64,000 nt of DNA from an uncultured Candidatus Rokubacteria bacterium (GTDB lineage: Bacteria; Methylomirabilota; Methylomirabilia; Rokubacteriales; DASRDR01), in assembly GCA_963708025.1 (NCBI GenBank), contig CAVPSB010000015.1, positions 160,001 through 224,000 of the forward strand. Reading direction: 5' to 3'. The translations under genes and the position numbers were made by a program. Below, piece after piece: positions 12,075-50,660 of the stretch. The notes under the pieces are model-generated. The model saw only the letters and a list, made by a program, of their open reading frames with translations. It was not told where the DNA came from and made no database searches. How positions within the stretch are numbered: the stretch's first letter is position 1; each line of letters opens with the position of its first letter.

Positions 12075-14471
<2,397 letters not shown>

Positions 14472-31142: not shown

Positions 31143-33053
31143 GTGAGTGCGTGGCGGGTGGGCGGCGTGTCCGGCAGTTGTGGCCTCGTTCTCATGCTCC
31201 TGGCGGGATCGTTGTGGGCCCAGTCTCCCGGCGTGGGTGAGCCAGTCGAGTCGGGGGTCCGCTCGGAGCGCGTCCGTGATCTCCTGGCGCAGCGGATCCA
31301 GCGGCGCCCTGCCGAGGAGGAGCCGAAGCCGGAGCCGGCGGCGCCCGGGGCGCCCGGGGCTCCCGCCGCGCCGGGGGCGCCGGCCGAGGGTGGCCCACCC
31401 CTGCGCACCCCGGCCGATCCGCCCCTGGGAGTGGCCGGGCAGTCCGGGATCCCCCTGGTGAGCCAGACCACCTCGGACTTCCTGCCGCTTCCCGATCGCT
31501 GGCGGACGGGCTTCCCCCGCTGGGACCGCTACGGTCGCTCCTTCGATCTGCCCTACGCCGAGGGCAAGTGGTGGGACCCCTACACCCAGAGCGTGATCAA
31601 GGGGGACTACCCGATCTGGGGCCAGTACACCTTCTTCTCGCTCACCGCGATCAGCGACACGCTGATCGAGGCCCGCAAGCTCCCGACCCCGGCCGGCATC
31701 TCGCCCGCCCGGGCGAACCAGAACCCGTTCTTCGGCGAGGGCGAGCAGCTCTTCTGGAACCAGAACTTCATCCTGACCTTCGAGCTGTTCCACGGCCTGA
31801 CCGCCTTCCGGCCGCGCGACTGGGAGATCCGATTCACCCCCGTGATCCAGTTCAACTACCTGGACACGCGGGAGACGGGCGCGGTCAACGTCGACCCCGG
31901 CAAGAGCACCAGCCGGTTCGACACCGACGTGATCGGGATCCAGGAGGCGCTGGTCGAGTACCACATCGCCGACCTGTCGCCCTACTACGACTTCGTCTCG
32001 GTCCGGGCCGGCATCCAGCCGTTCCTCAGCGACTTCCGCGGCTTCCTCTTCGCCGACAACGAGCTGGGCGTCCGGTTCCTCGGCAACTACTTCGCGAACC
32101 GCCTCCAGTACAACGTGGCCTACTTCCACATGCTGGAGAAGGACACCAACAGCGGGTTGAACCGGCTGACCGCCCGGGACCAGAACGTCGTCATCGCCAA
32201 CCTCTACCGCCAGGACTTCATCTGGCCCGGCTACACCGCCCAGCTCAGCTTCCACTACAACAACGACAGAAGAGCACCCAGTTCGACGACAACGGCTTCA
32301 TCGTCCGACCGGCGGCCATCGGCACGATCCAGGAGCACGAGCTCGACGCCTACTACCTCGGCTGGACCGGCGACGGCCACATCGGGTGGCTGAACATCAC
32401 CCACCCGTTCTACCAGGTGCTCGGCCGCGACAGCCTCAACCAGATCGCCGGCCGCTCGGTCGACATCAACGCCCAGATGTTCGCCCTCGAGCTCTCGGCG
32501 GACCTCGACTGGCTGCGCCCGAAGGTCTCGTTCCTGTGGGCCTCGGGCGACCCCGATCCCCAGGACGGCACCGCCCGCGGCTTCGACACGATCTTCGACA
32601 ACCCGAACTTCGCCGGCGGGCCGTTCAGCTTCTGTCCGCCAGGGGATCGCGCTGACCGGCGCCCGGTGAACCTGGTCAATCGGAACAGCCTGGTGCCCGA
32701 CCTCCGCTCCAGCAAGGAGCAGGGGCAGGCGAACTTCGTCAACCCCGGCCTGTTCCTCTTCAACGTGGGCGTCGACGCCGCGGTCACCCCGAAGCTCAAG
32801 GCCCTGTTCAACGTCAACTACCTCCGCTTCCAGGATACCGAGCTCGCTCCGGGTGCTCCTCTTCCAGAACAAGATCCGCGACGACATCGGCTGGGACCTC
32901 AGCCTCGGGATCCAGTACCGGCCGTTCCTGAACGACAACATGATCGTCACGGCCGGCTTCGCGGGATTCATCCCCGGCGACGGGTTCAAGGACATCTACC
33001 AGAAGGACGACCTGCTCTACTCGGCGTTCGCCACCTTTACCGTCACGTACTGA
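31143..33053 (+). CDS. outer-membrane beta-barrel protein (frameshifts near 32270, 32635 and 32845)
   Basis: Signal peptide ..LLAGSLWA, Pro-rich linker, amphipathic strands (QEALVEYH, RAGIQPF, LGWTGDG, NVNYLRF), C-terminal FTVTY. Confidence 0.8.
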
Positions 33054-33158
33054 GAGACCGTGAGGGGACCGACCCCGACCGCGGGCGAGGGATGACCCAA
33101 GGGGGGGACCCGGGGGAGGAGCGCGCAGCGCCCCCCCGGCCCGACTGAGAGGAGCGCC

Positions 33159-36100
33159 ATGCTCAGCGCAGCGACTCGAGGTGGTCTGGGCCGCGCCGCC
33201 CTCGGCTGGGGGCTCTCGGCTGTACTCGTGGCATTCGTCATCGTCGCCTGTGCCCGGGCGCCGCGAGCGCCGTGCCGGTCGCCGAGATGGCGACCAAGGC
33301 CGGCGACCTGAAGAAGCAGACGGAGCAGGACGTGGCCAAGAAGAGCGCCGGCTGCCTGACCTGCCACACCCAGACCGACTCGCAGACCATGCACGAGTCG
33401 CGACGGTGAGCTCGGCTGCATCGACTGCCACGGCGGCGACGCCGGACCGACGGCGCCGGCCGGCACGAAGGCCGGGGACGCCACCTACGAGGCGCAGAAG
33501 AAGGCGGCGCACGTGCTGCCGCACGACACCCATCTCTTCGCGCACCTCGGCGAACCCCGAGCGCTCGGCCACCGCCTGGCTGAAGGAGCGCGGAGTTCGT
33601 CCGGTTCGTGAACCCCGGCGATCTGCGGGTGGCCCGGGTGACGTGCGGCCTCACCGGCTGCCACCCCACCGAGGTGGCGGCGGTCGAGAAGAGCATGATG
33701 ACCCACGGCGGCCATGCTGTGGGGCGCCGCGCTCTACAACAACGGCGCGTTCCCGATCAAGCATGCCGCGGTTCGGCGAGAGCTACGGACCCGACGGCAC
33801 GCCCCAGCGCGCTGCAGACCGTCCCGCCGCCGACCCCCGAGGAGATCGTCAAGAAGGGCGTGCTGCCCTTTCTCGACCCGCTGCCGCGCTTCGAGGTCGG
33901 CCAGCCGGGCAACATCCTGCGCGTCTTCGAGCGCGGCCAGCGCAAGCCCCTCGAGATCGGCCTCCCGATCGTCGACGAGGACCCGGCCGGCCGGCCAACC
34001 GGCTGAGCCACCGCGGGCTCGGCACCCTCAACCGCACCGACCCGGTCTTCCTCAGCCTGCAGAAGACGCGCCTGCTCGACCCGATCCTCTCGCTTCCTCG
34101 GCACCAACGACCACCCCGGCGACTACCGCTCGAGCGGCTGCACGCGCCTGCCACGTGGTCTACGCCAACGACCGCGATCGCCGGTCCACTCCGGCCCGTA
34201 CGCCGCAGTTCGGCAACCTGGGCCGGACGCCAGCGACCGATCCGACCATCCCGCAAGGACGAGTCCGGGCACCCGATCAAGCACACGTTCACGAACGCGA
34301 TCCCCACCAGCCAGTGCATCGTCTGCCACATCCACCCGGGCACCAACGTGTGACACGACGCTACCTCGGCTACACCTGGTGGGACAACGAGACCGACGGC
34401 GAGCGTGATGTACCCGGCCAAGGAGCGCAGCAGCTCACGCGCCGAGCAGGTCGCACGAGATCCGAGCGGCCAACCCCGAGGGCGCCGCCGCTGCGCGGGC
34501 TGTGGTCGGACGTCGACTTCCTCGCACAACGTGACGCGACCTCAACCCGCAAGCTCACGCGCACCCAGTTCGCCGACTTCCACGGCCACGGCTGGATCTT
34601 CCGCGCCGTCTACAAGCAGGACCGCAAGGGCAACCTGCTCGACGCCAAGGACGACAGGTCGTCGCCCCCGACGATCCCGACCAGCTTCAAGAAGGCCGTG
34701 CACCTGAAGGACATCCACCTCGAGAAGGGGATGCACTGCGTCGACTGCCACTTCGAGCAGGACGTGCACGGCAACGGCAAGCTCTACGGCGAGACGCGCA
34801 ACGCGATCGAGATCGACTGCGTGGACTGCCACGGCACGATCGACGAGCAGGGCCACGCTGCGACGTCGGGCCCGGCGGCGCCCGCCGGGCGGCACCGACC
34901 TCTCGACCGCTGCACGACGCCGTTCGGCCAGCGCCGCTTCTACTGGCGGGGCGACACGCTGATCCAGCGCTCGATGGTCGACCAAGGAGCTCGCAGTGGG
35001 AGGTCGTGCAGGTGCTCGACACCATCGACCCGCCTCGACTGGGCCCGGCCAACCCGAAGTACAGCGAGCGGTCGCGGCTGGCCAAGACGATGCGCAAGGA
35101 CGGCACGACCTGGGGCGCCGTGCCGGCCGAGAGGGCAAGGACCTGGCGCACGCCGACGCCAAGATGACCTGCTACACCTGCCACACGTCGTGGATGACGA
35201 GCTGCTTCGGCTGCCACCTGCCGATGCAGGCCAACGAGCGCGAAGCCGCTCCTGCACAACGAGGGCGACGAGCCGCGCAACTGGACGCCGTACAACTCCC
35301 AGGTGCTGCGCGACGACGTCTTCATGCTGGCGATCGACGGCACGGTCACCGGGCAACCGGATCGCGCCGGTCCGCTCCTCGAGCGCCGTCCTCGTCGGCT
35401 CGCAGAACGCCAACCGCGAGTGGGTCTACTCGCAGCAGCAGACCGGTCTCGGCCGAGGGCTTCAGCGGCCAGGCCTTCAACACGTCACGTTCCCCACACG
35501 GTGCGCGGCCGACCGAGACGCAAGCAGTGCACCGACTGCCACGTCTCGGCAGGCGAACGACAACAACGCCTGGATGGCGCAGCTCCTGCATGCAGGGCAC
35601 GAACTTCGTCAACTTCATCGGCCGCTACGTCTACGTGGCCGAGGGCAAGGCGCGGGCTCGAGGCGGTCGTCGTCACCGAGCGGGACGAGCCGCAGGCGGT
35701 GATCGGCAGCCACCTGCACGAGCTGGCCTACCCGACGAACTACCAGCAGCACGCGGCGCGCGGCAGCCGTCCTGCAGGAGGCCTACCACCACCGGGGCCG
35801 CGACGTCTCGACTGTTCGGCCGGCGACGAGGTGCTGTCCATCCAGCTCCGCGGCGAGTACCTCTACACCGCCAACGGGCCGGGCGGCTTCCGCGTCTACG
35901 ACGTCGCCAACATCGACAACAAGGGCTTCTCCGAGCGCATCGTGACCGCGCCGGTCTCGCCGCTCGGCCAGCGGCTCTACGTGAAGACCAAGTACGCGAC
36001 CGCGGTCGCGTCGCCCACCACGCTGGCGCGTCGACCCGACGCGGGCGCAGCGGCCGGAGAACGCAGGAGCAGCCGATCCACCCGCTCTACGCGCTACCTC

Positions 36101-37075
36101 TACGTCACCGACCGGGAGGAAGGGCTCGTGTCATCGGCATCCGCCGTCGAACCGCCGGCGCACGCTGCTCGACGGCGATCCGAACAACAACTTCCTCGAA
36201 GCGCGCCGTCGCCTTCAACCCCGACGGCGTGCTCGACGGCGCCGTCAACCTCACCATCGCCGGCACGCTACGCCTACGTCCTGCGCCAAGCGCGGCCTCG
36301 TCGTCGTCGACCTCGACGACCCGCTCCAGCCGACGGTCGTGGCCGAGGTCGGCGCGCCGGCGATCGTCGAGCCCGCGCGCCGTCGCCGTGCAGTTCCGCT
36401 ACGCCTTCGTCACCGACGGCGAGGGGCTGAAGGTCATCGACGTCACCGAGCCGACCGCGCCCCGGCCGGTGCCCGGCGCGACGGTGCCGCTCGCGGACGC
36501 GCACGGGATCTACGTCGCCCGCACCTACGCCTACGTCGCCGCCGGCGCCAAGGGCTGGTCGATCGTCGACGTCGAGCGAGCCGGAGCGCGCCGACGCTCG
36601 ACCAGATGTACAACGCCGACGGCGCGCATCAACGACGCGCGCGACGTGAAGGTCGGCATGACCAACGCCAGCGCTCTTCGCCTACGTCGCCGACGGCAAG
36701 AACGGCCTGCGCGTCGTCCAGCTCATCTCGCCGCGACGACAACGCCGAACTACACTCGGCTTCAGCCCGCGGCCGACGCCGCGGCTCATCGCCACCTACG
36801 AGACGCACGGGCCGGCGCTGGCGCTCTCCAAGGGCCTCGACCGCGACCGCGCCGTCGACGAGAGCGGCAACCAGATCGCCGTCTTCGGCCGGCGCGGCGC
36901 CCGCCCGTTCAACCGGGCCGAGATGGAGCGCCTGTACCTCCGCGACGGCAAGCTCTGGACGGTGAAGGACACGCCGCCCGGCGCGCCGCGAGAGATGAAG
37001 GGCGCGGAGCCGAAGAAGGAAGAGGAGCCCGCCCCGCAGGAGCGCCGGCCCCGCCGCGGCGCCCCCGGCGGCTAG
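33159..37075 (+). CDS. large multiheme cytochrome c (10 heme motifs) with C-terminal LVIVD-repeat beta-propeller; many frameshifts
   Basis: Heme motifs at 33353, 33417, 33644 (CX4CH), 34139, 34315, 34737, 34818, 35170, 35203, 35528; repeats such as [52 protein letters not shown]. Confidence 0.85.
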
Positions 37076-37138
37076 ATCCATCCGGGGGGTCTCGGAAGAC
37101 CCCCCGGATTCCCCCCCTCGGTTGCGCGGGCGAAGCCC

Positions 37139-37294
37139 GTGCTCGGAGCGGCCTGGACAGGCCGCGCGGCGGGACGCATCCTGCTGAGCGACGTCATCGT
37201 GTTCAAGAAGGAAGTCGTGATCATGTTGGTGGCCGTCCTCACCCCGATCACGCTCCTGGTGTTGATCGTCGTGATACGCATGCTTCTGCGATAG
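37139..37294 (+). CDS. small single-TM protein (start GTG 37139 or 37199), not in ORF track
   Basis: VFKKEVVIMLVAVLTPITLLVLIVVIRMLLR*; GC3-rich codons. Confidence 0.45.
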   Translation: MLGAAWTGRAAGRILLSDVIVFKKEVVIMLVAVLTPITLLVLIVVIRMLLR

Positions 37295-37442: not shown

Positions 37443-37446
37443 GGTT

Positions 37447-39631
37447 TCAGCGCGAGGAGATGTCGGTGGCCGGGAGGCCTTCGCTGCGGGGCGGGCGGGG
37501 GGCCGGGACGACCGGGGCCGGCAGGTTCGGGTCCTCGATCTGCTTCTTGAGCTGGGGAGCCCGGCGCTTGAATTCCTCGTAGACGGACTGGGCCTCGGCC
37601 GGGTCCAGCACGATCCGCGGGGTGACGAGGATCATCAGCTCCGTCTTGATCGTCCCCTCTGTCGTGGCGCCGAAGAGATAGCCGAGGATCGGGATCCGGG
37701 ACAGGAACGGGATCCCCTGCCGGACCAGCGCCTTCCGCTCCTCGATGAGCCCGCCCAGGACCAGCGACTCGTTCTCGCCCACCACGACCGACGTCTCGGC
37801 CACCCGCTTGATGAACACCGGCGACTGGGTGGCGGTGACGTCGTTCGGGCGGACGTCGGAGACCTCCTGGCGGACGTCCAGCGCCACGAAGCGGTTCTCG
37901 CTGACCCGGGGCAACACGGTCAGGAGGATGCCGGTGTCCCGGTACTCGACGGTCGTCGTGATCACCGAGGAGGGCTGGACCGCGCCGACCACGCCGGTCG
38001 TCGGCTGCTGCTGGCTCGTGAGGATGGGAACGGAGCGGCCCACGTGGATCTGGGCGCGCTTGTTCTCCACGGCGAGCACGCGCGGGCTGGAGAGCACGTT
38101 GACGCGGTTCTCGGCGGCGAACGCCTGGAGCATCCCCAGGAAGTCCTTGCTCTGGAGCACGAAGAAGAACGTCGGGGGGAGCGGCACGATCCCCGGCACC
38201 CCGGTGTCGAGGCCGCTGCTGAGCGTGACATTCTCCCCCCCGATCTTGATGCCGCCCGAGCGGAGCGCCCACTCGATGCCGAGCGAGGTCGAGTCGTCGA
38301 GCGTGAACTCCGCCACCAGGATCTCGATGAGGACGCGCCGCGGCATCCGGTCGAGCCGCTGCAGGATCGGCTGGAGGACCGCCCAGCTCGGCGGCGTGGT
38401 GGTGATCAGGAGGGTATTGGTGGCCTCGTCCGCGATCACGCGGACGTCCTCGGCCGCCAGGTCGTCGCCCTCCGGGACCACGCCCGGCGGCGGCAGTCCT
38501 CCGGGCGGCGGCCCCCCTGGCGCGGGCTCGAACGGCATGCCCGGGGGCAGGGGGCCGGGGCGCGGGGCCGGGAGCTCGGGCCCCTCCCCGCCGGCGGAAG
38601 AGCCCGGTCAGGGTGGTGGCCAGCTCCTTGGCCCTCAGGTGCTCGACGCGGTAGATGAAGACACCGCGCGAGGGGGGCGACTGGGTGTCGAGCCGGGTCA
38701 CCAGGGCCTGGATGCGCTCCAGCACGGCCGGCGGACCCACGGCCAGGATGGTGTTGGTTCGGCCGTCGGCGAGTATCACGGCCCGACCGCCGGTCGGCTC
38801 CTGGAGGGCCGGCCCCGGCGGCGCTCCCTCCAGCCCCTCGGGGGCTCGCGGTACCGGGGGCGGGAGCGCTCGGCCGGGAGCGGCCGGCCCGCCCGCGACG
38901 AGCTGGGTGATGAGCGGGGCCAGGGTGGTGGCGTCCGCGAAGCGGAGCGGGAAGATCTGAAGCTGCTCCTGGGCGGTCGGCACGTCCAGCATGCGGATCA
39001 CCGACAGGTACCGGCGGAGCTTCTCGACGGAGTCGGTGATCACCAGGATGTTGGTGTCACGGTGCACGGACACCGCCGCCTCCCGGCTGATCAGCGGCAG
39101 CAGCACCCGGACCAGCTCGCCCGCCGATCCGTAGCGGAGCGGGATCAGCTGGGTGACGATCTCCTCGGGCCGCCGGCTCGGATCCGGCTCGGACCCCACC
39201 ACGACGGGGAGCCCCTGGGCCTGGGCGGCGGCGATCCGGATGATCTTGTAGAGGTCGCCGGCGCGGACCGCGGTCAGGCCGTGGGTTTCCAGGACCGTCA
39301 GGAGCATGTCGAACAGCGCGCGGCGCGGCACCCGGCCCTGGACGGTCACCTTGCGGCGGACCTCGGGGGCCAGAACGTAGTTGAACTCGATGGCCTGGGC
39401 GACGGCGTCGAGGACGACGTCCAGGTCGGCGTCCTGGAAGTTCAGGGTCACCAACTCGTCCTCGGTGGCGAGGCGGGCCGGCGCCGGCGCCTGGGGGAAC
39501 ACCGGGGTCAGGACGGCGCCCGGCAGGGCGAGGACGGTGAGGACGGCGAGGGACCAGCGAGCCAGGCGCGCGCGCCTCGCCGGCAGCCCCTCCCGCCGAC
39601 GGCGCCGGGGGGTCGTGCACCACACACTCAT
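37447..39631 (-). CDS. gspD: type II secretion secretin (frameshift(s) about 38540-38600)
   Basis: VTLNFQDADL N0 domain, N-domain repeats (DGRTNTIL, DEATNTLL), VLIEILVAE, VLSSPRV, GRSVPI, YRDTGILL.V.P, GIPFLSRIPILGYLF, TELMILVTPRI. Confidence 0.92.
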
Positions 39632-39715: not shown

Positions 39716-39720
39716 GCCAC

Positions 39721-41234
39721 CGCATCGGATCAAAACTTCGGTTACCGAACGGAGGGGGCTCCATCAGAAGTTACGGTTACCAACTCCAGCCAGGAGGTGA
39801 CCGTGACGCGAGCCGGATTGCGGGAGTACGCCGCCGCGCAGCGGGAGCGCTATCTCGGCGCCCGGCGGGCCGACAAGCATCGGCTGCTGACCGAGGTGGT
39901 GACCGTCACCGGCCTGCACCGCAAGGCGGCCATCCGCCTGCTGCGGCGCCCCCCGCGCCCGCCCGGCGGCCGCCCCCGCTCGGGCCGCCCCCGCGTCTAC
40001 GGCCCCGCCGTGGCCGCCGCCGCGCAGCTCCTCTCCGAGGCCACCGGCCACATCGGCCCCCACCGCTGGCACCCCTTCCTCCCCGAGCTGCTCGATCGCC
40101 TGACCCGGAGCGGCGACCTGGTCGTCCCCCCGGAGGTCGACAAGCGCCTCCGCCAGGTCAGCCCCGCCACGCTGGCCCGCCTGCTGGCCCCGTTCCGGGC
40201 CACGCTCCCCGGGCGGGGGGCCACCACCACCCGCCCCGGGGCCTGGCTCAAGCATGAGATCCCCGTCCGCACCTTCGCCGAGTGGAGCGACGCCCAGCCC
40301 GGCTTCCTCGAACTCGACTTGGTCGCCCACTGTGGCCCGACCACGCGCGGCTTCTATCTCTGCACCCTCTGCGCCGTCGATGTCGCGACCAGCTGGGTCG
40401 AGCTCCAAGCCGTCTGGGGCAAGGGCCAGCTGCGGGTCGGCACCGCCATCCACCACGTCCGCCAGCGCCTGCCCATGCCCTTGCGCGGCCTGGACAGCGA
40501 CAACGGCTCCGAGTTCATCAATCACGACCTGTATGCCTGGTGCCAGCGCGAGGGCATCACCTTCACCCGCAGTCGTCCCTACCAGAAAAACGACAGCGCC
40601 CACGTCGAGCAGAAGAACGGCGCCATCGTCCGCCCCCTCATCGGCTATGATCGGTACGCCTCCCGCGCCGCCTATGCCCAGCTCGCCCGCGTCTACGAGC
40701 TCGCCCGGCTGCACATCAACTTCTTCCAGCCGGTCCAGAAGCTCGTGACCAAAGCGCGCCGCGGCCCGCGCGTGCATCGCGTGTACGACCGCGCCCAGAC
40801 CCCGTATCAGCGCCTGTGTGCCACGGGCGTCCTCCCGCCCCCGCGCCGGCAAGAGCTCGAGGCCGTGTATCAGCGGCTCAACCCCCTGCACCTCCGCCGG
40901 CAGCTCGAGGCCGCCCTGGATCGCCTCTGGCCCTTGGCCGTCCCGGCCCCGCCCGCGCCGGCCGCACCCCGGGAAAACGCCCCGGAAAGGGAATAGCCGG
41001 ATATGGCCTCGCGCCCAACTCGCGCTCCTACGGGCGCCCAGCGGCCCGCGCGCCTGACCCCGGGCCTGGCCAGCGGCCCCAGGCGCTCCCGGGGCGCGCC
41101 GCCCGCCCGGTCCGCCGGCACTCCCACGGCCTCACGCGCCGCCCTGGGCGGCGCCGCCACCCTGCGGCCCCGGGTAACCCTGACTTCTGATCTGACGGAT
41201 CACGGAGGGTAACCCTGACTTATGAGTGACCGCG
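39721..41234 (+). mobile_element. insertion sequence, 1514 bp, ISNCY-type (size and 5-bp TSD fit the ISLbi1-like group)
   Basis: GCCAC duplicated at 39716-39720 and 41235-41239; imperfect ends CGCATCGGATCA / rc CGCGGTCACTCA; two subterminal ...TCA.AAG..A.GGTTACC-type motifs at each end. Confidence 0.85.
39803..40996 (+). CDS. DDE transposase (integrase core)
   Basis: AGGAGG RBS; GLHRKAAIRLL; ELDLVAHCG; DSDNGSEFIN; SRPYQKNDSAHVEQKN; intact frame. Confidence 0.92.
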   Translation: MTRAGLREYAAAQRERYLGARRADKHRLLTEVVTVTGLHRKAAIRLLRRPPRPPGGRPRSGRPRVYGPAVAAAAQLLSEATGHIGPHRWHPFLPELLDRLTRSGDLVVPPEVDKRLRQVSPATLARLLAPFRATLPGRGATTTRPGAWLKHEIPVRTFAEWSDAQPGFLELDLVAHCGPTTRGFYLCTLCAVDVATSWVELQAVWGKGQLRVGTAIHHVRQRLPMPLRGLDSDNGSEFINHDLYAWCQREGITFTRSRPYQKNDSAHVEQKNGAIVRPLIGYDRYASRAAYAQLARVYELARLHINFFQPVQKLVTKARRGPRVHRVYDRAQTPYQRLCATGVLPPPRRQELEAVYQRLNPLHLRRQLEAALDRLWPLAVPAPPAPAAPRENAPERE

Positions 41235-41281
41235 GCCACCACTCGCCACCGGCTGGCCGTCGTGGGCCATGACGAAACCCC

Positions 41282-41361: not shown

Positions 41362-42589
41362 ATGAGCAGGAGCCTCCCGGGCATCACGTCCCTCATCCTC
41401 GTTGCGGCGATGGCCGTCGTCATCGGAGCCGCCGTGCAGAGCGCGGAGGCGCAGCTGGCGATTTCGAAGGAGTTCAAGTACACCGGCACCGGCTCGTGCG
41501 CCGCCTCGAGCTGCCACGGCGCCAAGAAGCCGGCCGCCAAGCCGGGCGATCCCGACGACACCTACACCGTCTGGGCGACCAAGGACAAGCACAACAAGGC
41601 GTATACCACGCTCACCAAGAAGGAATCGGTCGCGATCGCCCAGAAGCTCAAGATCGCCAAGGCGACGGAGTCGGACAAGTGCACCGGCTGCCACGCGCTC
41701 CACATCACCAAGGAGATGCTGGCCCCGAAGGCGAAGTACGACGTCGCCGACGGGGTGAGCTGCGACTCCTGCCACGGCCCGGCCGAGAAGTGGCTCGAGG
41801 GGCACGACAAGGGCGAGAAGAACTGGCCGCACGCGAAGTCGGTGAGCATGGGGATGTACGACACCAAGGACGTGCTGAAGCGGGCCGAGCTCTGCGTCTC
41901 GTGCCACCTGTCGATCGAAGCCGAGATGGTGGCGGCCGGTCATCCGACGATGATCTTCGAGCTCGACAGCTTCAGCGCAGAACCAGCCCCCGCACTGGAA
42001 GGACCAGAAGGACTGGTTCGGCGCCCAGGCCTGGAGCACCGGTCAGGCGGTCGCCCTCCGGGAGTCGGCCCAGCAGCTCGCGACCCGGGCCAAGGGGAAC
42101 GCGCCTGAGGCGCTGATCAAGGAGAGCTTTGACCAGACCCGCGGCCACGCCATCTCGCTGCGGTCGGTCCTGGGCCAGGTGGCCGCCGACGCCGGCAAGA
42201 AGCTCGACGCCGAGATCGCCGCGATGGGCGACGGGAAGGACAAGGCCAAGGTGGCGGCCGCCGCGACCAACGTCGCCAAGCTCGGCGGCGACCTCTCCAA
42301 GCAGCTCTCGCAGACGAAGTTCAACAAGGACATCGTCTGGGCGACTCTCAAGGCGGCGGTGAGCGATCCCGAGCGGGCGACCTCGGCCGGGCTGCGCTCG
42401 GCCGAGCAGGTGGCCATGTCGGTGGACAGCCTCTTCCGCTCGGTCAACGCCGTGGCGAAGCCTCCCGAGGGGAAGGCCATCGACGCCGCGATCGGGAAGA
42501 TGTTCGACGAGCTGCCGAGCAAGCCGGCGGACTTCGACGCCAAGAAGTTCTCGGCCAACCTGCAGGCGATCGGCAAGAACATCAAGTAG
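41362..42589 (+). CDS. periplasmic tetraheme cytochrome c (c554-like) with helical C-terminal domain (frameshift near 41985)
   Basis: Signal peptide; YTGTGSCAASSCH, CTGCH, GVSCDSCHGP, CVSCH; AAGHP...FELD. Confidence 0.88.
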
Positions 42590-42605: not shown

Positions 42606-44355
42606 ATGGCGCAGCCTGGCGAGGTCATCGTCTCCGAGCTGCGGGAGATTCAGCACCGGTACGGCTATCTCCCGGTGGAAGAGCTCCGCGCGCTCTCCGC
42701 CCGCATCGCGGTGCCCGTCTACCAGCTCCACGGCGTCGCCAGCTTCTTCCCCCACTTCCGGCTGCACCCGCCGGCCTCGGTCGAGGTGCGGGTCTGCGCC
42801 GACATGTCGTGCCACCTCAACGGGGCCCGGCAGCTCCTCGGCGCCTTCCAGACCGAGGCCAACCGGATCTCCGACATGGACGTCCAGACCGTGTCCTGCC
42901 TGGGGCGGTGCGATCGGGCGCCGGCGGCGGAGATCGGCGAGCACATCCTCGAGTCCGTCTCCATCGAAGAGGTCCCCGACCTCGTCCTGTCCGCCGCCGA
43001 CGGCAAGATGGAGCCCCGGCCCCGGGTCGGCGCCCAGCCCACGGCTCTCCGCAGCGATCCCTACAGCGGCAGCCCGCGCTACGAGGCGGTCCAGCAGTTC
43101 CTGGGTCACGGCGACGTCGAGCGAGTGCTGGGGACCCTCAAGGCCGCCGGGCTGCGCGGCATGGGCGGGGCCGGCTTCCCGACCGGCGGACAAGTGGGAG
43201 CTCGTGCGCAGCGCGCCGGGCGACGACAAGTACATCGTCTGCAACGCCGACGAGAGCGAGCCCGGCACCATCAAGGACCGCTTCATCCTGGAGTCCCTGC
43301 CCCTATCTGCTCGTGGAGGGCATGATCGCTCGCCGGCCTGGTCACCGGCGCCCGAGCAGGGCATCGTCTACATCCGCCACGAGTACGAGCCAGATGCGAG
43401 GAAGCGCTCGAGCGCGCCATCCGCGAGGCGCGGCAGCAGGGCGTGCTCGGCCCCCGGGTCATGGGCTCGGACCGCACCTTCGAGCTCGAGACTCTTCGTC
43501 AGCCCCGGCGGCTACATCTGCGGCGAGGAGTCCGCGCTGCTCGAGGCGATGGAGGGCAAGCGGGCCGAGCCGCGCAACAAGCCGCCGTTCCCGGTCACCC
43601 ACGGCCTGTACGGCAAGCCGACCGTCATCAACAACGTCGAGACCCTGGCCTTCGTGCCGCTCATCCTGCTGCAGCGGCGCCGACTGGTTCAAGGCGCAGG
43701 GCGCAGAACGGCGCGGCAGCGGCCTCAAGTTCGTCGGCATCAGCGGCGCACGTGGCGCGGCCGGGCGTCTACGAGGTCGCCGATGGGCACGCACGGCCCG
43801 CGAGGTCATCTACGACCTCGCCGGCGGCATGCCGGAACGGGCGGCGCGCTGAAGGCCTGGGCCCCGTCGGGGCCGTCGTCGGGCTTCCTGCCGGCCTCGA
43901 TGATCGACTTGCCGCTCGACTTCGGACACGCTGGCCAAGGCCGGCTCGATGCTCGGCTCGGGCGCGGTGCGTCGTGATGGCCGAAGGCACGTGCATGCTC
44001 GACATGGCGCTCAACGCCGTACGCTTCTTCCGCAACGAGTCGTGCGGCAAGTGCGTGCCGTGCCGGGTCGGCTCCGCAGAAGATGGTCGAGCTGCTCGAC
44101 CCGGGTCGACGCGGGGCCAGGCCGGACCGGGCGACATGGACACGCATCGACGACCTCGACCAGGCGCTGCGGCTCACCTCGATCTGCGGCCTGGGCCAGG
44201 TCGTGCCGAAGCCGATGCGCTCGGTCGATCCAGCACTTCCGCGAGGAGGTGGACGACGCACCTCCTCCGGCAACGCTGCCCCGCGGGCGTGTGCTCTGGA
44301 TCAGGCGGCGGGCTCCGATCGGGACTTGACGGCGACCATCATGAGGCGGCTCTGA
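42606..44355 (+). CDS. NuoE-NuoF fusion (NAD(H)/FMN diaphorase module); frameshifted
   Basis: NuoE-like CADMSCH and CLGRCD; NuoF GLRGMGGAGFPTG, NADESEPG, YICGEESALL, PTVINNVET, ESCGKCVPCR, SICGLG, CPAGVC. Confidence 0.88.
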
Positions 44356-46586
44356 TGGCGCCGGCCACGTCGAGGCGACCATCGACGGGAAGTCGGTCGA
44401 GCGTGCCGGCCGGCACCACGATCTTCGACGCCGCCCGCGCGGCTCGAGCATCGCCATCCCGACCCTCTGCCACCCGCAGCACGCAGACGCCGGTCGGCGT
44501 CTGCCGCGTCTGCGTGGTCGAGGTGAAGAACGCGCGCGTGCTGCCGGCGGCCTGCGTCCGGCCGGTCGAAGCCGGGCATGGAGGTCATGACCGCGCGCCG
44601 AGGCGTGCAGCGAGCGCGCCGGACGCTGGCTCGAGCTGCTGCTGGCCGACCACCCCGTCCCCTGCGCCCGGCAGGCGAAGACGCGGCGACTGCGAGCTGG
44701 AGAACCTGGCCGCGGGCTGCCGACCTGGCGCCGGCCGCGCTTCGCGAGGCCGCCCGTCGCCGCGTGGGCGCGACGACTCGCCCCCCATCATCGCCGTCGA
44801 CCACACCGCCTGCATCCTGTGCGACCGCTGCATCCGCGGCTGCACGCGAGGTGCAGGCACAACTTCGTCATCGGCCGCGCCGGCAAGGGCTACGCGGCGG
44901 GGATCGCCTTCGACACCGACGTCCCCATGGGGAAGTCGACCTGCGTGTCGCTGCGGCGAGTGCATGGTCTCGTGCCCGACCGGCGCGCTCACCCTCAAGA
45001 CCGAGGCGGCGTCGTCGCCGGCCTCGACCCGGCGGCCAGCTGGTCGGCGAGACGCTGACGTCGGCCGACGATCCGGGACGTGCCGATCTTGCGAGGGGTG
45101 TCGGGCAACGTTCCTGGACCTGAACCGCGGCGCCGGTGGTCGGCGGCACGTTCCAGCCGGGCGAGGTCATCTGCCGGGAGGGCGAGTTCGGCTCCACCGC
45201 GTTCTACGTCCTGAGGGGCAAGGTCGAGGTCTCCATCCCGACCCCGATGGCCCACTGCGACGAGCCACGCCGGGGCTCCACGGGCGGCTGGCGGGGCTGC
45301 GCTCCACAAGATGACCCGAGCTCCGGTGCACAGCGGGACGGAGCCCAGGCGGAGTCGGCGACGCCCACCGGCTATCATCCCGATCGACGCCTCCGTCGAC
45401 CTCGCCTACGACAAGCCGGTCGCCCAGCTCGGGCCCGGCGAGCTGTTCGGCGAGATGACCTGCCTCATCTTCTATCCGCGCTCGGCCACCGTGCGGGCGG
45501 TCGAGGACGACCGTCGTCCTCGAGATGCTGCGCAACGTGCTGCAGATCCTGCAGCGGAACAAGACGTTCCGGCCGAGCTCGAGCGCGCGCTATCGCGAGC
45601 GCGCGCTCGACACGCACCTGCGCAGCGTCCCGATCCTGGCCGGCCTCACCGACGAGTTCATCGACCGACCTGCGCGACAGCGTCGAGCTGGTCCGCTACG
45701 AGCCCGGGCGAGGTGATCTGCCGGCAGGGCGACGCCGGCCGACAGCTTCTATCTGATCCGGATCGGCTTCGTGAAGGTGACGCCAGACGTTCCCCGGCGG
45801 CGAGCTGGTCGCTGCCGTACCTGGCCCGCGGCAACTACTTCGGCGAGATCGGTCTGCTGGGCGGCGGCGTCCGGACCGCCACCTGCACCGCGCTCGACCA
45901 CGTCGAGGTGGTCCGCATCAGCGGCCGACGACTTCCGACGCATGCTCGAGCGCTTCCCCGACGATCCGCCGCGCGCCTCGGCGGACGTGGCCCGAGCGCC
46001 GCACGCGAGGAGAACGCAGCGGCAGGCCTCACGGCTCGTCGACGTCGCCGCTCGAGGACTTCCTCGGCCAGGGGCTGATGGAGGCGCAGAACCTGCTGCT
46101 CATCGACCTCGACCGCTGCACGCGCTGCGACGCCTGCGTGCGGGCCTGCGCCGACGCGCACGACGGCGTCACGCGGCTGGTCCGCGACGGGCTGCGCTAC
46201 GACAAGTACCTGGTGGCGACCTCGTGCCGCTCGTGCCGCGACCCGCTGTGCATGGTCGGCTGCCCGGTCGGCTCGATCCGGCGCACGGACTCGCTCGAGA
46301 TCATCATCGAGGACTGGTGCATCGGCTGCGGCTGTGCGCCGAGCACTGCCCGTACGGCAACATCAACCTGCACCCGTTCAAGGTCACCGCCGACGCCCGA
46401 GCGCCGGCGGCAAGAAGGCGGTGGTCCGCGAAAGGCGACCGCGCTGCGACCTGTGCCGCGAACTGAACAGAGCCGAGCTGCGTGTACGCGTGCCCGCACG
46501 ACGCCGCCATGCGGGTCGAGCCCCGCGAGTTCTTCGCGACCGGGACGTCCCAGGTCCGGGGCGCCCCGCCGTCCATCCGGTCATGA
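44355..46586 (+). CDS. NuoG/HydA-like N-terminal FeS domain + two cNMP-binding domains + C-terminal 4Fe-4S polyferredoxin; frameshifted
   Basis: IPTLCH, GVCRVCVVE, CILCDRCIRGC, CGECMVSCP; LFGEMTCLIFYPRSATVRA and YFGEIGLLGGGVRTATC; CTRCDACVRAC, CRSCRDPLCMVGCP, CIGCG, CDLC..CVYACP; TGATG/ATGA couplings. Confidence 0.82.
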
Positions 46587-47506
46587 TCATCGATCGCGGT
46601 CACCTCCGGTGGGTGGCGATCTGCCTCGGCATCCTCCTCGCTTCCACCGCGGTCTACATCCCGTACCACGTCCGCTCGCTCAACGGGCCGTCGGGCGGCA
46701 GCCTGATCGGGCTCCTCTTCGGCTTCATCGGCTACGGGCTCATGCTCTTCGCCGGCGCGCTCGGCGTGCGGACCCGGCGCGCGACCTGGCGCTTCGGTCG
46801 CGCGGAGACCTGGCTCAAGGGCCACGTCTGGCTGGCCCTGCTGGCCTATCCGCTGATCTACTTCCACGCCGGCTTCGCGTTCGGCGGGCCGCTGACCGTG
46901 GCGCTCATGATCCTGTTCACCATCGTGACCGTCAGCGGCCTCGTCGGCGTGGTGCTCCAGGGGATCCTCCCCCGCATGATGACCGAGCGGGTCCCGCTGG
47001 AGACGATCTTCGAGCAGGTGGACAACGTGCTGGCCCAGATCCGGGGGGAGGCCGACCACGTGGTCAAGGCGGTCGCCGATCCGGAGCAGGCGTCGGCGGA
47101 CGAGGCGGCGGCCACGGTCGGCCGCCGGCCGCCCCCGTCGGCTCGGCGGGCGCAGGTGCGGGCGCAGATCGGAACCACGTCGGCCCCGGCCGAGGAGGCC
47201 CAGGCCCTCAAGGAGTTCTACGAGAACGAGGTGCGCCCGTACCTGTACGACAAGGCGGGACGGACCGCGTCGCTCAACAGTCCGTCGAAGGCGGCGGTGG
47301 TCTTCGCCCAGCTCCGGACGCGGGTGCCGGACGAGCTGCACCACGTCGTGGACGACCTCCAGGCCATCTGCGAAGAGCGCCGCCAGCTCAAGGTGCAGAC
47401 CGGACTCCACTACTGGCTGCACGCGTGGCTCCTGGTCCACGTGCCGCTGTCGCTGGCGCTGCTGCTACTGTCCGCCGCGCACGCCGTCCTGGCGTTGCGC
47501 TACTAG
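46583..47506 (+). CDS. integral membrane protein with paired His residues (ferric-reductase/cytochrome b-like)
   Basis: TM helices with WLKGHVWL..YFHAG and WLLVHVPLS..AAHAV. Confidence 0.75.
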   Translation: MIIDRGHLRWVAICLGILLASTAVYIPYHVRSLNGPSGGSLIGLLFGFIGYGLMLFAGALGVRTRRATWRFGRAETWLKGHVWLALLAYPLIYFHAGFAFGGPLTVALMILFTIVTVSGLVGVVLQGILPRMMTERVPLETIFEQVDNVLAQIRGEADHVVKAVADPEQASADEAAATVGRRPPPSARRAQVRAQIGTTSAPAEEAQALKEFYENEVRPYLYDKAGRTASLNSPSKAAVVFAQLRTRVPDELHHVVDDLQAICEERRQLKVQTGLHYWLHAWLLVHVPLSLALLLLSAAHAVLALRY

Positions 47507-47515
47507 AGGCACTTC

Positions 47516-49073
47516 GTGGCGCGGGAGCGAACGACCAAGGGGCTGGCCAAGCGGATCGAGCTGACCTACTACCAGCACCTGCATCCCTTCCGGCGCCTGT
47601 GGCGGATTCTCTGCATCGCCCTGGTGTCGGTCGCCGCGGTGTGGCTCATCGTGATGGCGGTCATGGGGGATCAGCGGATCTACACGAGCGGTCCGGTGGC
47701 GACGGCTCACCGGATGTTCAACCTCGACTGCGAACGCTGTCACGTTCGACCGGCCGACGCCGGCGGCCCCGGTGGCCAAGGCCGACGGCGCGGCGCCGGC
47801 GGCGCCCGTCATCCCGGTCTCGACGACGCGGCACCCTGGCGGCTTCTTCCGCCGGGTCAGCGACGGCGCCTGCTTCAGCTGTCACGATGCCCCCGACCAC
47901 CACGCCAACGCGGCAGTGTCGCTGCGGTGCGCCGAGTGCCACCTCGAGCACAAGGTGGAGACCACGCTGGCCCGGATGTCGGACCGGCACTGCGTCCTCT
48001 GCCACGCCGACCTGAAGACCAAGAGCGGGACCACCGAGTACGAGCGCCAGGTCGTCAGCCTCGCCCGGCATCCGGAGTTCGCGGTCTTGCGGAAGAACGT
48101 CAAGGACGCGACCCAGATCAAGCTGAACCACGAGACCCACCAGAAGCCCGACTTGCCGGCCGGCGGCGGGAAGCGCGTGACGCTCGGCTGCGTGAGCTGC
48201 CACGTGCAGGACGACGCCGGGAAGTACATGAAGCCGATCTCCTTCGACCTGCACTGCAAGCAATGCCACCCGCTGGAGGCCAGCGCCGACGTCGTCGTGC
48301 CCCACCAGCGGCCCGAGATCATCCGGGGCTTCCTGCTCAGCCGCTCCGCCCGAGGCGGCGGGGCCGCGGCCAGCCCGGCGGCGGCGCCCGGCGCCGAGAA
48401 GCCGGCCGACAAGCCGGCCGAAGAGGAGGCCCCGAAGGGCCGCCGGCGGGGAACCGGCTCATCCGCGTTGCCGGAGGCGCTCGTGCGGCTCGTGGGCTGG
48501 GTCCAGGAGGCGGTCGGGACCACCGAGCGCCCGCCGATCCAGCTCGTCCAGCGGCAGCGCGGCGGGGGCGCGCCGGAGGCGCCGGCGGCGCCCTCCGGAG
48601 CGGCCCCGGCCGGAGCGGCGCCTGCCGCAGCGGCCCCGGCCGCGGGTGGCGGGGGTGGCGGGCTGGCGGGGGTTGTCCAGCTGGAGAAAGGCTTGTACGA
48701 GGGCAGGTCGGCGGTCTGTCCCTACTGCCACATGATCGAGAAGGCCGATCCGCTGCCCCGCATCGTGCCGCCGAAGATCCCCGTGCGCTGGTTGCCGCGG
48801 AGCTCGTTCGACCATCGAGCGCACCGGCCGCTGGCCTGCCTGGCCTGCCACCCGGACGCCAAGAAGAGCACGGACACGGCCGACGTGTTGTTGTCGAAGG
48901 TGGCAGTCTGTCAGGAGTGCCACCGGGAAGGCGGCGGGGCCCGGGCGGGCTGCGTGGAGTGCCACCTCTATCATGACCGGTCCAAAGAGCGGTCGCCGGA
49001 CGGCCCGCACACGGTGCCTCAGTTCGCCGTCACGGCCGGACGTCCGACCGCCGCGCCAGCGACGAAACCCTGA
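47516..49073 (+). CDS. membrane-anchored decaheme cytochrome c3-family protein (frameshift near 47770)
   Basis: N-terminal TM; CERCH, CFSCH, CAECH, CVLCH, CVSCH, CKQCH, CPYCH, CLACH, CQECH, CVECH; c3-like FDHRAH and LNHETH. Confidence 0.9.
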
Positions 49074-49181
49074 CGCGACGCCAGCCGGCGGGCGCGTCGC
49101 TCCGGTCTGTGGACAGCCGTTCCGCGATCGTGGTAGGGTGCGGGCGGTAACGTAAACGACGGGCTTCTCTGAGGGAGGGGA

Positions 49182-50660
49182 ATGGGCACGCGAGACGTCT
49201 CCCGAATCGGTACGGGTGTCCTGATCGCCGTCGCGCTCCTCGGGTCCGCCTCCCGGGTCGGGGCCGTCCCGCTGACCGCCGACGAAGTCCAGCTCATCGT
49301 CAGCACGGCGGCCGCCTCGATCGACGCCACCACGGCGGTCATCGCGGTGACCGACCGCTCGGGCAACCCGCTCGCCGTGTTCCGGAAGATCAACGGGAAC
49401 GCAGGGGCCGCTGACACCGCGGTGGGTCTGGCCCGGAGCGCCGCGTTCTTCGCCAACGACCAGGCCCCGCTCTCCTCGCGGACCGTGCGCTTCATCACCG
49501 AGATCCACTTCCCGCCGGGGGTCGCCGGCACGCCCAACGGCGGGCAGTACGGCATCGAGAACACGAACCGGGGCTGCACGCTGAGCAACAACTTCAACCC
49601 CGGCAAGGCGGTCCCACCGTCCCGGTCGCTCAGCGGAGGCACCGGTCCGGGCATCATCACCGGCAAGCCCGACGTGTTCGACTCGAATCCCAACGCGGTG
49701 AACCCGGGTGGTGTCCCGGTCTACAAGGACAACCAGGTCGCGGGCGGAGTCGGCGTGACCGGCGTCTCCGCCGCGGAGGCCGAGTTCGCGGCCTTCAGCG
49801 GCGGCTTCGGGAACGGAAACCCCCGGTTCTCGCCGACCTTTGGCTCGCCGGGTGTCGTCTTCATCGACGGCGTCGCCCTGCCGTTCGTGAACCAGCGGAC
49901 CCGACCGGCCGGCAGTTCCCCTGGCAGCTTCGTCGGTGACTTCCTCCTGGGGCCGCAAGGGAGCCCGAACGCCGGCGTGCCGGACGGCTATCTGGTCGGT
50001 CCCGCCGGGAGCGCCGAGCTGAGCGCGGCGGAGGTCGACGGCATCGTGCGGCGGGCCGAGGCCCAGGCCAACAGCACCCGCGCCGCGATCCGGCTGCCTC
50101 TCGGCAGGACGACCCGGATGGTGATCTCCGTCTCGGACCTCCAGGGCAACCTGCTCGCGATCTTCCGGATGCCCGACGCGACGGTTTTCAGCATCGACGT
50201 CTCCGCGACCAAGGCCCGGAACATGGTCTACTTCCCGAGCACCCGGCTCGACCCGGCCGACCTACCCGGTGTCCCGCCCGGGACCGCCCTGACCGCCCGG
50301 ACCATCAACTTCGGCACTCAGCCCCTGTACCCGCCCGGCATCGATGCCGGCGGCCCCGGCCCCTTCTTCAACCTGTTCGTCCGGGACACGGCCCGTCCCT
50401 GCACGCAGGGCAACGACCAGCAGAACCGGGGGAACCAGAGCGGGATCGTCTTCTTCGCCGGCTCGGCCCCCCTGTACCGGAGCGGGGTGCTGATCGGCGG
50501 GCTCGGGGTGAGCGGCGACGGCGTCGAGCAAGACGAGGTCGTGACCGACGCTGGGTCACGTGGATTCGAGCCGCCCGACAACATCCGGGCCGACAACATC
50601 TTCATCCGCGGGGTCCGGCTCCCGTACTTCCGGTTCAACCGGAACCCGACCGCGCGCTGA
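49182..50660 (+). CDS. secreted protein with two GlcG/HbpS-like heme-binding domains
   Basis: Signal peptide; AVTDRSGNPL...PGGVPVYK...GGVGVTG and SVSDLQGNLL...GSAPLYR..IGGLGVSGDGVEQD. Confidence 0.85.
   Translation: MGTRDVSRIGTGVLIAVALLGSASRVGAVPLTADEVQLIVSTAAASIDATTAVIAVTDRSGNPLAVFRKINGNAGAADTAVGLARSAAFFANDQAPLSSRTVRFITEIHFPPGVAGTPNGGQYGIENTNRGCTLSNNFNPGKAVPPSRSLSGGTGPGIITGKPDVFDSNPNAVNPGGVPVYKDNQVAGGVGVTGVSAAEAEFAAFSGGFGNGNPRFSPTFGSPGVVFIDGVALPFVNQRTRPAGSSPGSFVGDFLLGPQGSPNAGVPDGYLVGPAGSAELSAAEVDGIVRRAEAQANSTRAAIRLPLGRTTRMVISVSDLQGNLLAIFRMPDATVFSIDVSATKARNMVYFPSTRLDPADLPGVPPGTALTARTINFGTQPLYPPGIDAGGPGPFFNLFVRDTARPCTQGNDQQNRGNQSGIVFFAGSAPLYRSGVLIGGLGVSGDGVEQDEVVTDAGSRGFEPPDNIRADNIFIRGVRLPYFRFNRNPTAR

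Follow-up and report, generated by a model that had tools for sequence, protein, structure and literature searches.

What purpose is served by a locus that sets an NADH-type flavoprotein and an iron-sulfur (FeS) protein with cyclic-nucleotide-binding (cNMP) domains beside a histidine-paired membrane protein, three multiheme cytochromes c and an outer-membrane barrel? The question arises at positions 31143 to 50660 of a 64,000-nucleotide stretch (the window) of contig CAVPSB010000015.1 (positions 160,001 to 224,000, forward strand; assembly GCA_963708025.1) from an uncultured Candidatus Rokubacteria bacterium. The answer we favor, at a probability of about 0.5, is that the cluster is a Rokubacteria-type variant of the ptd gene cluster, acting as an outward electron wire that is fed by NADH and gated by cyclic nucleotides.

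At a G+C content of 72%, lists of open reading frames in the window are crowded with spurious frames. Coding frames were judged by periodicity of G+C at third codon positions (GC3), by Pfam scans (76 plus-strand stop-to-stop segments of at least 60 amino acids [aa] between 30.8 and 51.2 kb, with the flanks scanned too) and by comparison with intact relatives. The intact gene models are the proteins of one relative genome, G027, and window coordinates are partly approximate (Table 1). In the window itself, Pfam identified NuoE (2Fe-2S_thioredx, 84 bits), NuoF (Complex1_51K, 68 bits, with NADH_4Fe-4S also matched), Fer2_4, cNMP_binding (58 bits), Cytochrome_C554, LVIVD (25 bits) and two HbpS-like stretches in a single protein (74.7 bits); Fer4 and c3-type matches scored under their Pfam cut-offs.

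An earlier note, made from the letters alone, had named the NuoE, NuoF, cNMP, C554, propeller and double HbpS-like families and had proposed a His-paired membrane protein, an outer-membrane beta-barrel and about 24 heme-c motifs. All of these held up. Twenty-three heme motifs are readable in the window (9 in the decaheme-propeller gene, 4 in the tetraheme gene and 10 in the decaheme gene), the 24th coincides with a frame break, and the intact G027 orthologs carry 10, 4 and 10, or 24. The note's description of the span as one locus is right about the families and wrong about continuity, as a minus-strand secretin gene and a 1522-bp insertion sequence (IS) interrupt it. The overlapping stop and start codons reported at 45311/45314 and 46078, like the gene bounds given with them, are by-products of frame breaks; the readable intergenic gaps measure 16 nt (42589 to 42606), 9 nt (47506 to 47516) and 108 nt (49073 to 49182).

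The genes do keep company in other genomes, so the lack of co-occurrence that would have refuted the note's proposal is not what is seen. Of 40 further genomes from the same family or order, 5 have the membrane protein (46583-47503), and all eight families are syntenic in the order-level relatives G027, G029 and G040. There they form two divergent operons with neither secretin nor IS between them: NuoEF, HoxU-like/cNMP/ferredoxin protein, membrane protein and decaheme in one, and barrel, decaheme-propeller, c554-like protein and double HbpS in the other. The order in the window is typical of its family and no private rearrangement, since genome G003, from that family, has the same one (c554-like, NuoEF, HoxU-cNMP, membrane protein, decaheme). 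A wider scan, in which an alignment of five membrane proteins was run against one genome per species, yielded 22 loci in metagenome-assembled genomes (MAGs) labelled Rokubacteria/Rokuibacteriota, Planctomycetota (including Phycisphaerales and Isosphaeraceae), Acidobacteriota (Bryobacterales and Acidoferrum/Acidiferrales), "Deltaproteobacteria" and others.

Counts were taken over the 17 loci with a strong membrane-protein match; many of them are cut by contig ends, so gene absences are weak evidence. A decaheme is present in all 17 and lies directly downstream of the membrane gene in 16, and the cNMP-ferredoxin gene occurs in 15 of the 16 loci that can be assessed (L015 begins at the membrane gene). 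Other members are more scattered: the decaheme-propeller was found in 8 of 17 loci, the c554-like gene in 7, the barrel in 6 and the HbpS-like gene in 3, with c554-like and syntenic HbpS-like genes additionally in G027 and G040. NuoEF accompanies only 5 of the 17 (L011-L014 and L027), and where it is missing the FeS protein has no HoxU-like N-terminus. The accessory domains of the FeS subunit vary as well, with a PilZ domain in L016 (8100-9953) and a C-terminal FHA domain in L022 (7111-9891), where a PP2C phosphatase gene (12441-13160) follows the decaheme. Two distant loci, L029 and L030, have a separate LVIVD propeller gene beside a 4-5-heme protein, and their membrane gene gives a weak DUF4405 match. 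Judged from gene content, the conserved core is the trio of cNMP/four-cluster ferredoxin protein, di-His membrane protein and decaheme, which spans MAGs labelled with at least four phyla. Around it, the donor on the cytoplasmic side, the regulator and the outer end are modular. NuoEF, which the note placed in the wire, is an optional input outside the conserved core, given its occurrence in 5 of 17 loci.

Three smaller observations belong with this survey. In L014 (3028-5641), the membrane gene follows immediately on NuoEF and the intervening cNMP-ferredoxin gene is missing, which is either a real variant or a mis-assembly. In L016 (4334-5182), a membrane protein with cNMP and DUF1003 domains is encoded 3' of the decaheme-propeller gene. 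Habitats of public runs among the listed holders are bog, soil, wetland and freshwater sediment, with word shares of at most 0.24 that amount to a hint only.

A cluster of this type already has a name. A 2024 preprint (Elbon, Stewart and Glass, bioRxiv 10.1101/2023.11.21.568154) named the ptdABCDEFG operon, which it reports from marine Alphaproteobacteria and from further bacteria of marine or saline settings. It describes PtdA as a pentaheme with a beta-sandwich, PtdB as a porin, PtdC as an FAD/NAD(P) oxidoreductase, PtdD as a periplasmic tetraheme, PtdE as a cNMP protein with 4Fe-4S clusters, PtdF as a ferric-reductase-like membrane protein and PtdG as a decaheme. The set is likened there to porin-cytochrome complexes, and a role in the nitrogen cycle is raised. 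Going by the published description of gene content and order, PtdD, PtdE, PtdF, PtdG and PtdB have their counterparts here in the c554-like, FeS, membrane, decaheme and barrel genes, respectively, and an NAD(P)H-type input is common to both clusters. The PtdE-like protein here has both cNMP domains and four Cys motifs, the PtdD-like protein has four heme motifs and a c554 domain, and the PtdG-like gene, with ten motifs, starts 9 nt past the stop of the membrane gene. The PtdF-like protein is a helical membrane protein in its model, with four invariant His and a sub-threshold Ferric_reduct match, and the PtdB-like protein agrees with a porin at the level of fold.

The differences from ptd, as the preprint describes it, lie mainly at the two ends. 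No PtdC-type FAD/NAD(P) oxidoreductase gene stands in the cluster here or in G027, G029 or G040; in its place are NuoE-NuoF and a HoxU-like domain fused onto the PtdE-like protein as an added N-terminal module. A decaheme-LVIVD propeller beside the barrel replaces the pentaheme/beta-sandwich PtdA, a double HbpS-like protein is added, and the genes are split between two operons. Instead of marine or saline bacteria, the hosts are Rokubacteria and others represented by MAGs from soil, bog and wetland. Our literature searches on Rokubacteria multiheme cytochromes and extracellular electron transfer turned up no description of this cluster, and none joining cyclic nucleotide binding, multihemes and NuoF; among the papers searched, ptdABCDEFG appeared in the naming preprint only, and a search for LVIVD with multihemes led to a preprint on the Tenderiales uet cluster, a different system. 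The earlier statement that no characterized system has this composition is still true, with the qualification that the type had been named and proposed to be a porin-cytochrome complex. The core idea is already in print for ptd, and what the present locus adds is an NADH-specific input, a different outer end and a terrestrial host range.

At the cytoplasmic end, the G027 NuoE-NuoF ortholog matches PF01257, PF01512 and PF10589 with 106, 140 and 102 bits, the same trio that the window shows. It scores 460 bits on TIGR01959, under the equivalog cut-off of 558.65, and the HoxU-like domain scores 167 bits on NF005745 against a cut-off of 333, likewise below equivalog level. Other NuoF paralogs of the window's genome lie on contigs C34 and C32. 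The G027 ortholog of the PtdE-like protein matches cNMP_binding (138 bits) and several Fer4 families; Pfam reports three cNMP stretches in its 736 aa, which we read as two domains, one of them split. Both phosphate-binding cassettes are kept in the window (FGE...PRSA and FGE...VRTA, at 45446 and 45839), and cassettes with their Arg are kept in 9 of 11 orthologs checked. Cyclic-nucleotide signalling is heavily used in this genome, because the class III nucleotide cyclase domain (PF00211) has 54 matches in it, none inside the window. We also observed that G027 encodes, directly after the decaheme (L007:15387-16988), a type II NADH dehydrogenase (Pyr_redox_2 and NDH2_C) with a C-terminal cNMP domain, and that the window's genome has such an NDH2-cNMP fusion, 69% identical, on contig C32 (50702-52159).

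The membrane protein is the piece on which the inner-membrane step depends. Among 8000 candidates scored, 611 database proteins matched it at E ≤ 0.001; none of 120 listed relatives carries a Pfam domain, and the names given to them are "hypothetical protein." Across 56 sequences H81, H95, H286 and H300 are invariant, and H276 and H280 are conserved in at least 90%. The members of each pair (H81/H95 and H286/H300) lie 14 residues apart on predicted transmembrane helices, a spacing that we take to be the geometry of two stacked b-hemes. An AlphaFold2 (AF2) model has a mean predicted local distance difference test (pLDDT) value of 82 and a predicted template-modelling score (pTM) of 0.71. The weak Pfam matches of individual members, all below threshold, go only to di-heme-b families: Ferric_reduct in 14 of 55 (best E, 0.0012), DUF4405 in 12 of 55 and prokaryotic cytochrome b561 in 3 of 55. 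A Foldseek search with the model returned nothing at E ≤ 0.001, and a profile search of the PDB returned nothing meaningful. We considered a fusion of the FeS and membrane genes, suggested by frames of 1100 and 922 aa in G003 and G040, and rejected it because a separate start of the membrane gene follows the FeS stop by about 20 nt; the long frames are stop-free alternative frames of GC-rich DNA.

The C-terminal ferredoxin domain of the PtdE-like protein has four Cys motifs that are conserved in 14 loci. Four such groups are the layout of four-cluster wires of the DmsB/FdnH/DsrO type, and the NCBIfam matches of the domain, all sub-threshold, are to DmsB (51 bits versus 214), DsrO, HydN and FDH3-beta. 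The second Cys of the fourth group is Ser in G027 (L007:12200-12742) and G040 (L013:9435-9977) and Cys in the other 12 loci.

We modelled the G027 membrane protein with the ferredoxin domain and two hemes, together with three controls. The interface score ipSAE was 0.76, 0.72 and 0.76 in the docking runs, compared with 0.00 for the best of the three controls. Of 157 solved complexes, 116 reached that mark, as did 2 of 215 mismatched pairs. In our runs, at least 85% of contacts were common to all runs, and partner pLDDT was at least 71. The modelled interface brings membrane-protein residues 60-78, 126-143 and 279-283 together with ferredoxin residues 30-46 and 150-163, joining the first and last Cys groups of the ferredoxin to the Arg-rich loop between transmembrane helices 2 and 3 and to the start of the last His helix. 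In this arrangement, the first and last Cys groups would bring the cluster that they form to the Arg-rich, presumably cytoplasmic, side beside the His helices. The model thus lends support to binding of the PtdF-like protein, at its cytoplasmic face, by the ferredoxin domain, a point in favor of the note's reading.

On the other side of the membrane, the intact G027 decaheme is N-terminally anchored and has 9 CxxCH motifs and 1 CxxxCH, with Pfam matches to Cytochrome_C7, c3 and Paired_CXXCH. The decaheme-propeller has 9 CxxCH and 1 CxxxxCH and an LVIVD match of 55.8 bits, and the c554-like tetraheme has 3 CxxCH and 1 CxxxxCH behind a signal-like N-terminal segment. Sequence searches of the PDB gave weak c7 and c554 matches for the cytochromes and none for the decaheme-propeller. 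Matches to TIGR03508, the MtrA/DmsE family, score 19.6 and 21.8 bits (cut-off, 192.2). No catalytic-heme family was detected, and the NCBIfam matches to ExtM and the DmsE family are far under cut-off. The double HbpS-like protein, whose G027 ortholog has a lipobox-like signal, finds a PduO-type DUF336 domain and EfgA as its relatives in the PDB.

For the barrel, all 8000 candidates scored were homologs at E ≤ 0.001, a few of them carrying Alginate_exp, and the homologs terminate in an aromatic residue. The AF2 model of the G027 protein (pLDDT 71, pTM 0.71) has about 20 strands preceded by a disordered, Pro-rich N-terminus of about 130 residues, and its best Foldseek matches are AlgE (E = 7e-16, TM-target 0.66) and then 18-strand Occ porins. 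MtrB, a large barrel of 26 strands, is absent among the 50 structure matches listed, although this does not of itself exclude an unlisted family. As modelled, the protein is a real beta-barrel that is AlgE-like by the matches listed, and the MtrAB-type pairing of barrel and multiheme that had been invoked as precedent finds no support in them.

These parts can be joined into the following scheme. Cytoplasmic NADH would be oxidized at the flavin mononucleotide of the NuoE-NuoF flavoprotein, and the electrons would be taken up by the PtdE-like protein, first in its HoxU-like FeS domain and then in the four-cluster ferredoxin domain at its C-terminus, which is predicted to dock on the cytoplasmic face of the PtdF-like protein. 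Two putative b-hemes (His81/His95 and His286/His300) would then carry them across the inner membrane, apparently without quinones, to the anchored PtdG-like decaheme and onward to the c554-like tetraheme and the decaheme-LVIVD-propeller protein. The latter is encoded beside the AlgE-like barrel, which may take part in electron transfer, and the terminal acceptor would be periplasmic or extracellular. Both the membrane potential and the low potential of NADH should favor outward flow. Gating is the most likely task of the two cNMP domains, which lie between the FeS modules for input and for output. Tight control is to be expected, because outward flow would drain NADH and membrane potential while conserving no energy, and the same drain would explain why second-messenger and phospho-signalling domains are gathered on the FeS subunit across phyla. 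A broader and more tentative proposal, which we consider possible although we would not bet on it, is that the ptd core (PtdE/F/G) is a quinone-independent, second-messenger-controlled inner-membrane electron gate with interchangeable donors and regulators, widespread among uncultured bacteria of soil and water and serving in Rokubacteria as a regulated NADH "vent" toward acceptors in the periplasm and outside the cell. Donors would be NuoEF-HoxU here and PtdC elsewhere, or none adjacent, and regulators would be cNMP domains, PilZ with cyclic di-GMP, or FHA with PP2C.

Several known systems share part of this design. In the Tmc, Hmc and DsrMKJOP complexes of sulfate reducers and in FdnGHI/NarGHI, a cytochrome b subunit in the membrane stands between an FeS protein with several clusters on one side and, on the opposite side, c-type cytochromes or an enzyme; the cluster resembles them in having a (putative) b-type membrane subunit between FeS protein and cytochromes and differs in having no NarI/HdrE or NrfD match, an NADH flavoprotein as input and cNMP domains inside the FeS subunit. 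In NADPH oxidases and ferric reductases (NOX, FRE, MsrQ), electrons from a nicotinamide flavoprotein move outward over two stacked b-hemes, whose paired His ligands have a spacing of 13-14 residues. The cytoplasmic nicotinamide flavoprotein and the paired-His membrane helices recur here, but the helix count differs, an FeS wire stands between flavin and heme, and the acceptor would be a multiheme cytochrome instead of O2 or Fe(III). With HoxEFU and the NuoEFG N-module the locus shares NuoE, NuoF and HoxU/NuoG-N-terminal domains with the full set of FeS motifs; scores lie under the equivalog cut-offs, however, and no hydrogenase or Nuo membrane arm is adjacent. The MtrCAB and Geobacter conduits likewise have an outer-membrane barrel encoded beside multiheme cytochromes, decaheme included, but the barrel here is AlgE-like, the DmsE/MtrA family scores are far under cut-off, and no quinol dehydrogenase of the CymA, ImcH or CbcL type serves the inner-membrane step.

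A number of points weigh against the wire as we have drawn it. NADH is not the general donor of the family, given how few loci have NuoEF, and two Bryobacterales orthologs fail the cassette pattern of the cNMP domains. The membrane protein is without any Pfam match above cut-off, and in VIA-align its scores against cytochrome b561 (Z, 8.4) and Dcytb (Z, 8.0) are within helical-bundle noise, tied with unrelated rows. The docking tool was calibrated on a set without riding ligands or user-supplied alignments. An AlgE-like barrel of the 18-strand class is perhaps too narrow to sheath a multiheme as MtrB does, and it may be only a substrate channel. A four-cluster ferredoxin with a di-heme b is also the layout of the quinone-coupled FdnHI and NarHI. 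Finally, the function of ptd "remains completely unknown" according to the preprint that named it (bioRxiv 10.1101/2023.11.21.568154).

Other explanations draw on the same parts. The locus could encode a quinone-coupled module, either a non-pumping NADH:quinone oxidoreductase or a quinol:cytochrome c oxidoreductase, in which the b-hemes would serve a quinone site as in the FdnHI/NarHI anchors and the multihemes would be fed by the quinol pool. The DmsB, DsrO, HydN and FDH3-beta matches of a ferredoxin domain that sits beside a di-His subunit are in keeping with this, as are the few cytochrome b561 matches of the membrane protein. We nevertheless think it rather improbable, as no quinone-site family was detected and a cytoplasmic ferredoxin domain combined with an anchored decaheme directly downstream in 16 of 17 loci fits a through-membrane hand-over. 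Nothing need reach the surface if the multihemes are themselves an enzyme of the periplasm that reduces or oxidizes a soluble compound (such as an oxyanion of nitrogen or sulfur, nitric oxide or hydroxylamine), with the barrel admitting substrate or exporting product. The likeness of the barrel to substrate channels (AlgE, OccD/K porins), with no MtrB among the matches listed, the c554-like tetraheme, a heme-fused propeller that could be catalytic, and the nitrogen-cycle role raised in the ptd preprint (bioRxiv 10.1101/2023.11.21.568154) make this a serious candidate, if still an unlikely one: no catalytic-heme family was detected, the ExtM and DmsE matches fall far short of cut-off, and LVIVD repeats are typical of cell-surface proteins, as the Tenderiales uet preprint states.

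The direction of flow might also be reversed, an extracellular or periplasmic donor feeding electrons through the hemes to reduce NAD+ at NuoEF. All the cofactors could conduct either way and HoxEFU-type modules are reversible, but such uptake would work against the membrane potential, most environmental donors should be far more positive than NAD+/NADH, and the cluster has no energy-coupling subunit; we regard it as very unlikely. Less credible again is a redox signalling device whose heme/FeS chain reports the periplasmic redox state without bulk flow. The varied domains on the FeS subunit (cNMP here, PilZ in L016, FHA with an adjacent PP2C gene in L022) might suggest one, yet these are input domains that receive ligands, and some 24 hemes with a dedicated NADH module would be a heavy investment for a sensor.

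The last alternative concerns this genome only, in which true frameshifts and an IS may have turned a conserved system into a decaying, non-functional array of pseudogenes. Two stretches, at about 33.3-36.7 kb and 43.2-46.6 kb, switch reading frame roughly every 100 bp. Frame changes (Table 1) were read from high-scoring segment pairs (HSPs) of ungapped tblastn with G027 proteins against the window, since gapped tblastn bled across frames at this G+C content. The shifts run in both directions, with insertions and deletions alternating at about one per 100 bp, and the pieces between breaks are 56-90% identical to G027, not below the identity of unbroken genes. Neither blastn nor tblastn found a second, intact copy of the cluster in the window's genome that might account for poor polishing. 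Genome-wide, 18,972 of 81,540 300-bp segments (23%) are without GC3 periodicity, and a phase-tracking hidden Markov model on six contigs found at least six same-strand phase switches in 34 of 1590 2-kb segments, so scrambled patches are not unique to this locus. Gene-level readings of this assembly need care, with such patches spread across the genome.

We then compared contigs of four public runs, 90-99% alike, over positions 31000-50700, where 12 of 199 indel rows are listed. Nine of the listed rows mark one base left out inside cluster genes and represent eight sites (33711 and 33712 being one); all eight match +1 frame changes mapped against G027. The remaining listed rows are 37417, in an intergenic G-run, and insertions at 46283 and 46285 that total three bases. 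Because of the break density, the alternating indels, the lack of added substitutions and the absence of breaks from related populations, the frame breaks in this assembly are very probably consensus errors and not decay. Two points count against this view: all eight extra-base sites lie in runs of one or two bases, by which homopolymer-type indel error is rejected and the error mechanism left unexplained, and the contigs without the extra bases, at 90-99% alike, are relatives whose membership of the same strain is not proven. Decay could also claim the sheer number of frame changes (about 70), an IS lying 85 bp upstream of the secretin start, and the patchy occurrence among relatives (5 of 40 genomes). 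Even so, scrambled stretches with no surplus substitutions, with similar patches elsewhere in the assembly and with counterparts free of extra bases in other runs make it improbable.

The IS itself is skipped in contigs of three public runs, which join 39716 to 41239 and omit its 1522 bp. A 4-bp CCAC stands at both junctions, and a copy on contig C13 (423230-424210) is 98.3% identical over 989 bp; on these sequence grounds we consider it a strain-specific element that inserted recently between the secretin and c554-like genes, which are divergent. The secretin has no match in any related locus examined, and we accordingly rejected a role for it in the system, such as type II secretion of a surface cytochrome. 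Secretin and IS are both lineage-specific interruptions, the secretin being a neighbor only, outside the conserved cluster. It is solitary, with no other type II secretion genes beside it, and wedged between the cluster halves.

If the NADH-fed wire is real, abundant uncultured soil bacteria (Rokubacteria, Acidobacteriota and Planctomycetota) would be able to send NADH reducing power to periplasmic or extracellular acceptors, bypassing quinones and under second-messenger control, with consequences for the redox cycling of metals and humic substances in soils and wetlands and for the disposal of surplus reductant. The NuoEF-linked form names a likely cytoplasmic donor for an otherwise uninterpretable cluster, and the intact membrane protein and its docking model offer concrete residues for testing. 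Should the broader gate proposal also be true, the core would follow the logic of an NADPH oxidase in bacterial form, with FeS clusters, b-hemes and c-hemes as its building blocks.

Table 1. Features of the cluster and its surroundings, with frame changes relative to G027 and lengths of the intact G027 orthologs
Feature	Position	Strand	Frame changes	G027 length (aa)	Remarks
Outer-membrane beta-barrel (PtdB-like position)	31143..33050	+	2	686	Signal peptide, Pro-rich linker; start approximate; 48-70% identity to G027 barrel in frames 0/2/0 (ungapped tblastn); changes near 32270-32282 and 32845-32847
Decaheme cytochrome c fused to LVIVD beta-propeller	33159..37072	+	~35	1333	N-terminal signal/anchor
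GspD-type secretin	37450..39631	-			Secretin 145 bits, Secretin_N, GspD N0; one frame change, near 38600
IS element, 1522 bp	39717..41238	+			rve transposase at 39764-40993 (Pfam rve); CCAC at both junctions
Periplasmic tetraheme c554-like cytochrome, helical C-terminal domain (PtdD-like)	41362..42586	+	1	428	Cytochrome_C554 44 bits; change near 41976-41991, HSPs to G027 ortholog in two frames
NuoE-NuoF fusion flavoprotein (NADH/FMN, 2Fe-2S, 4Fe-4S)	42606..44300	+	~13	562	End approximate
HoxU/NuoG-N-like FeS, two cNMP domains, C-terminal four-cluster ferredoxin (PtdE-like)	44300..46560	+	~20	736	Bounds approximate
Five-helix membrane protein, two invariant His pairs (PtdF-like, putative di-heme b)	46583..47506	+	0	310	Intact
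Membrane-anchored decaheme cytochrome c (PtdG-like)	47516..49073	+	1	557	Ten heme motifs in window; change at ~47794-47841
Secreted protein, two HbpS/GlcG (DUF336) domains	49182..50660	+	0	496+	HbpS-like Pfam; intact
LigD	51312-53897				Flank of cluster; Pfam

On the other flank, an outer-membrane protein of the Phenol_MetA_deg type (29051-30439, minus strand) is divergent from and adjoins the barrel gene. Dispersed REP-like repeats of about 50-110 bp, with dozens of copies at 77-100% identity on most contigs, occur at 37062-37175, at the end of the decaheme-propeller gene, and at 29000-29060, at that of this neighboring outer-membrane protein gene.

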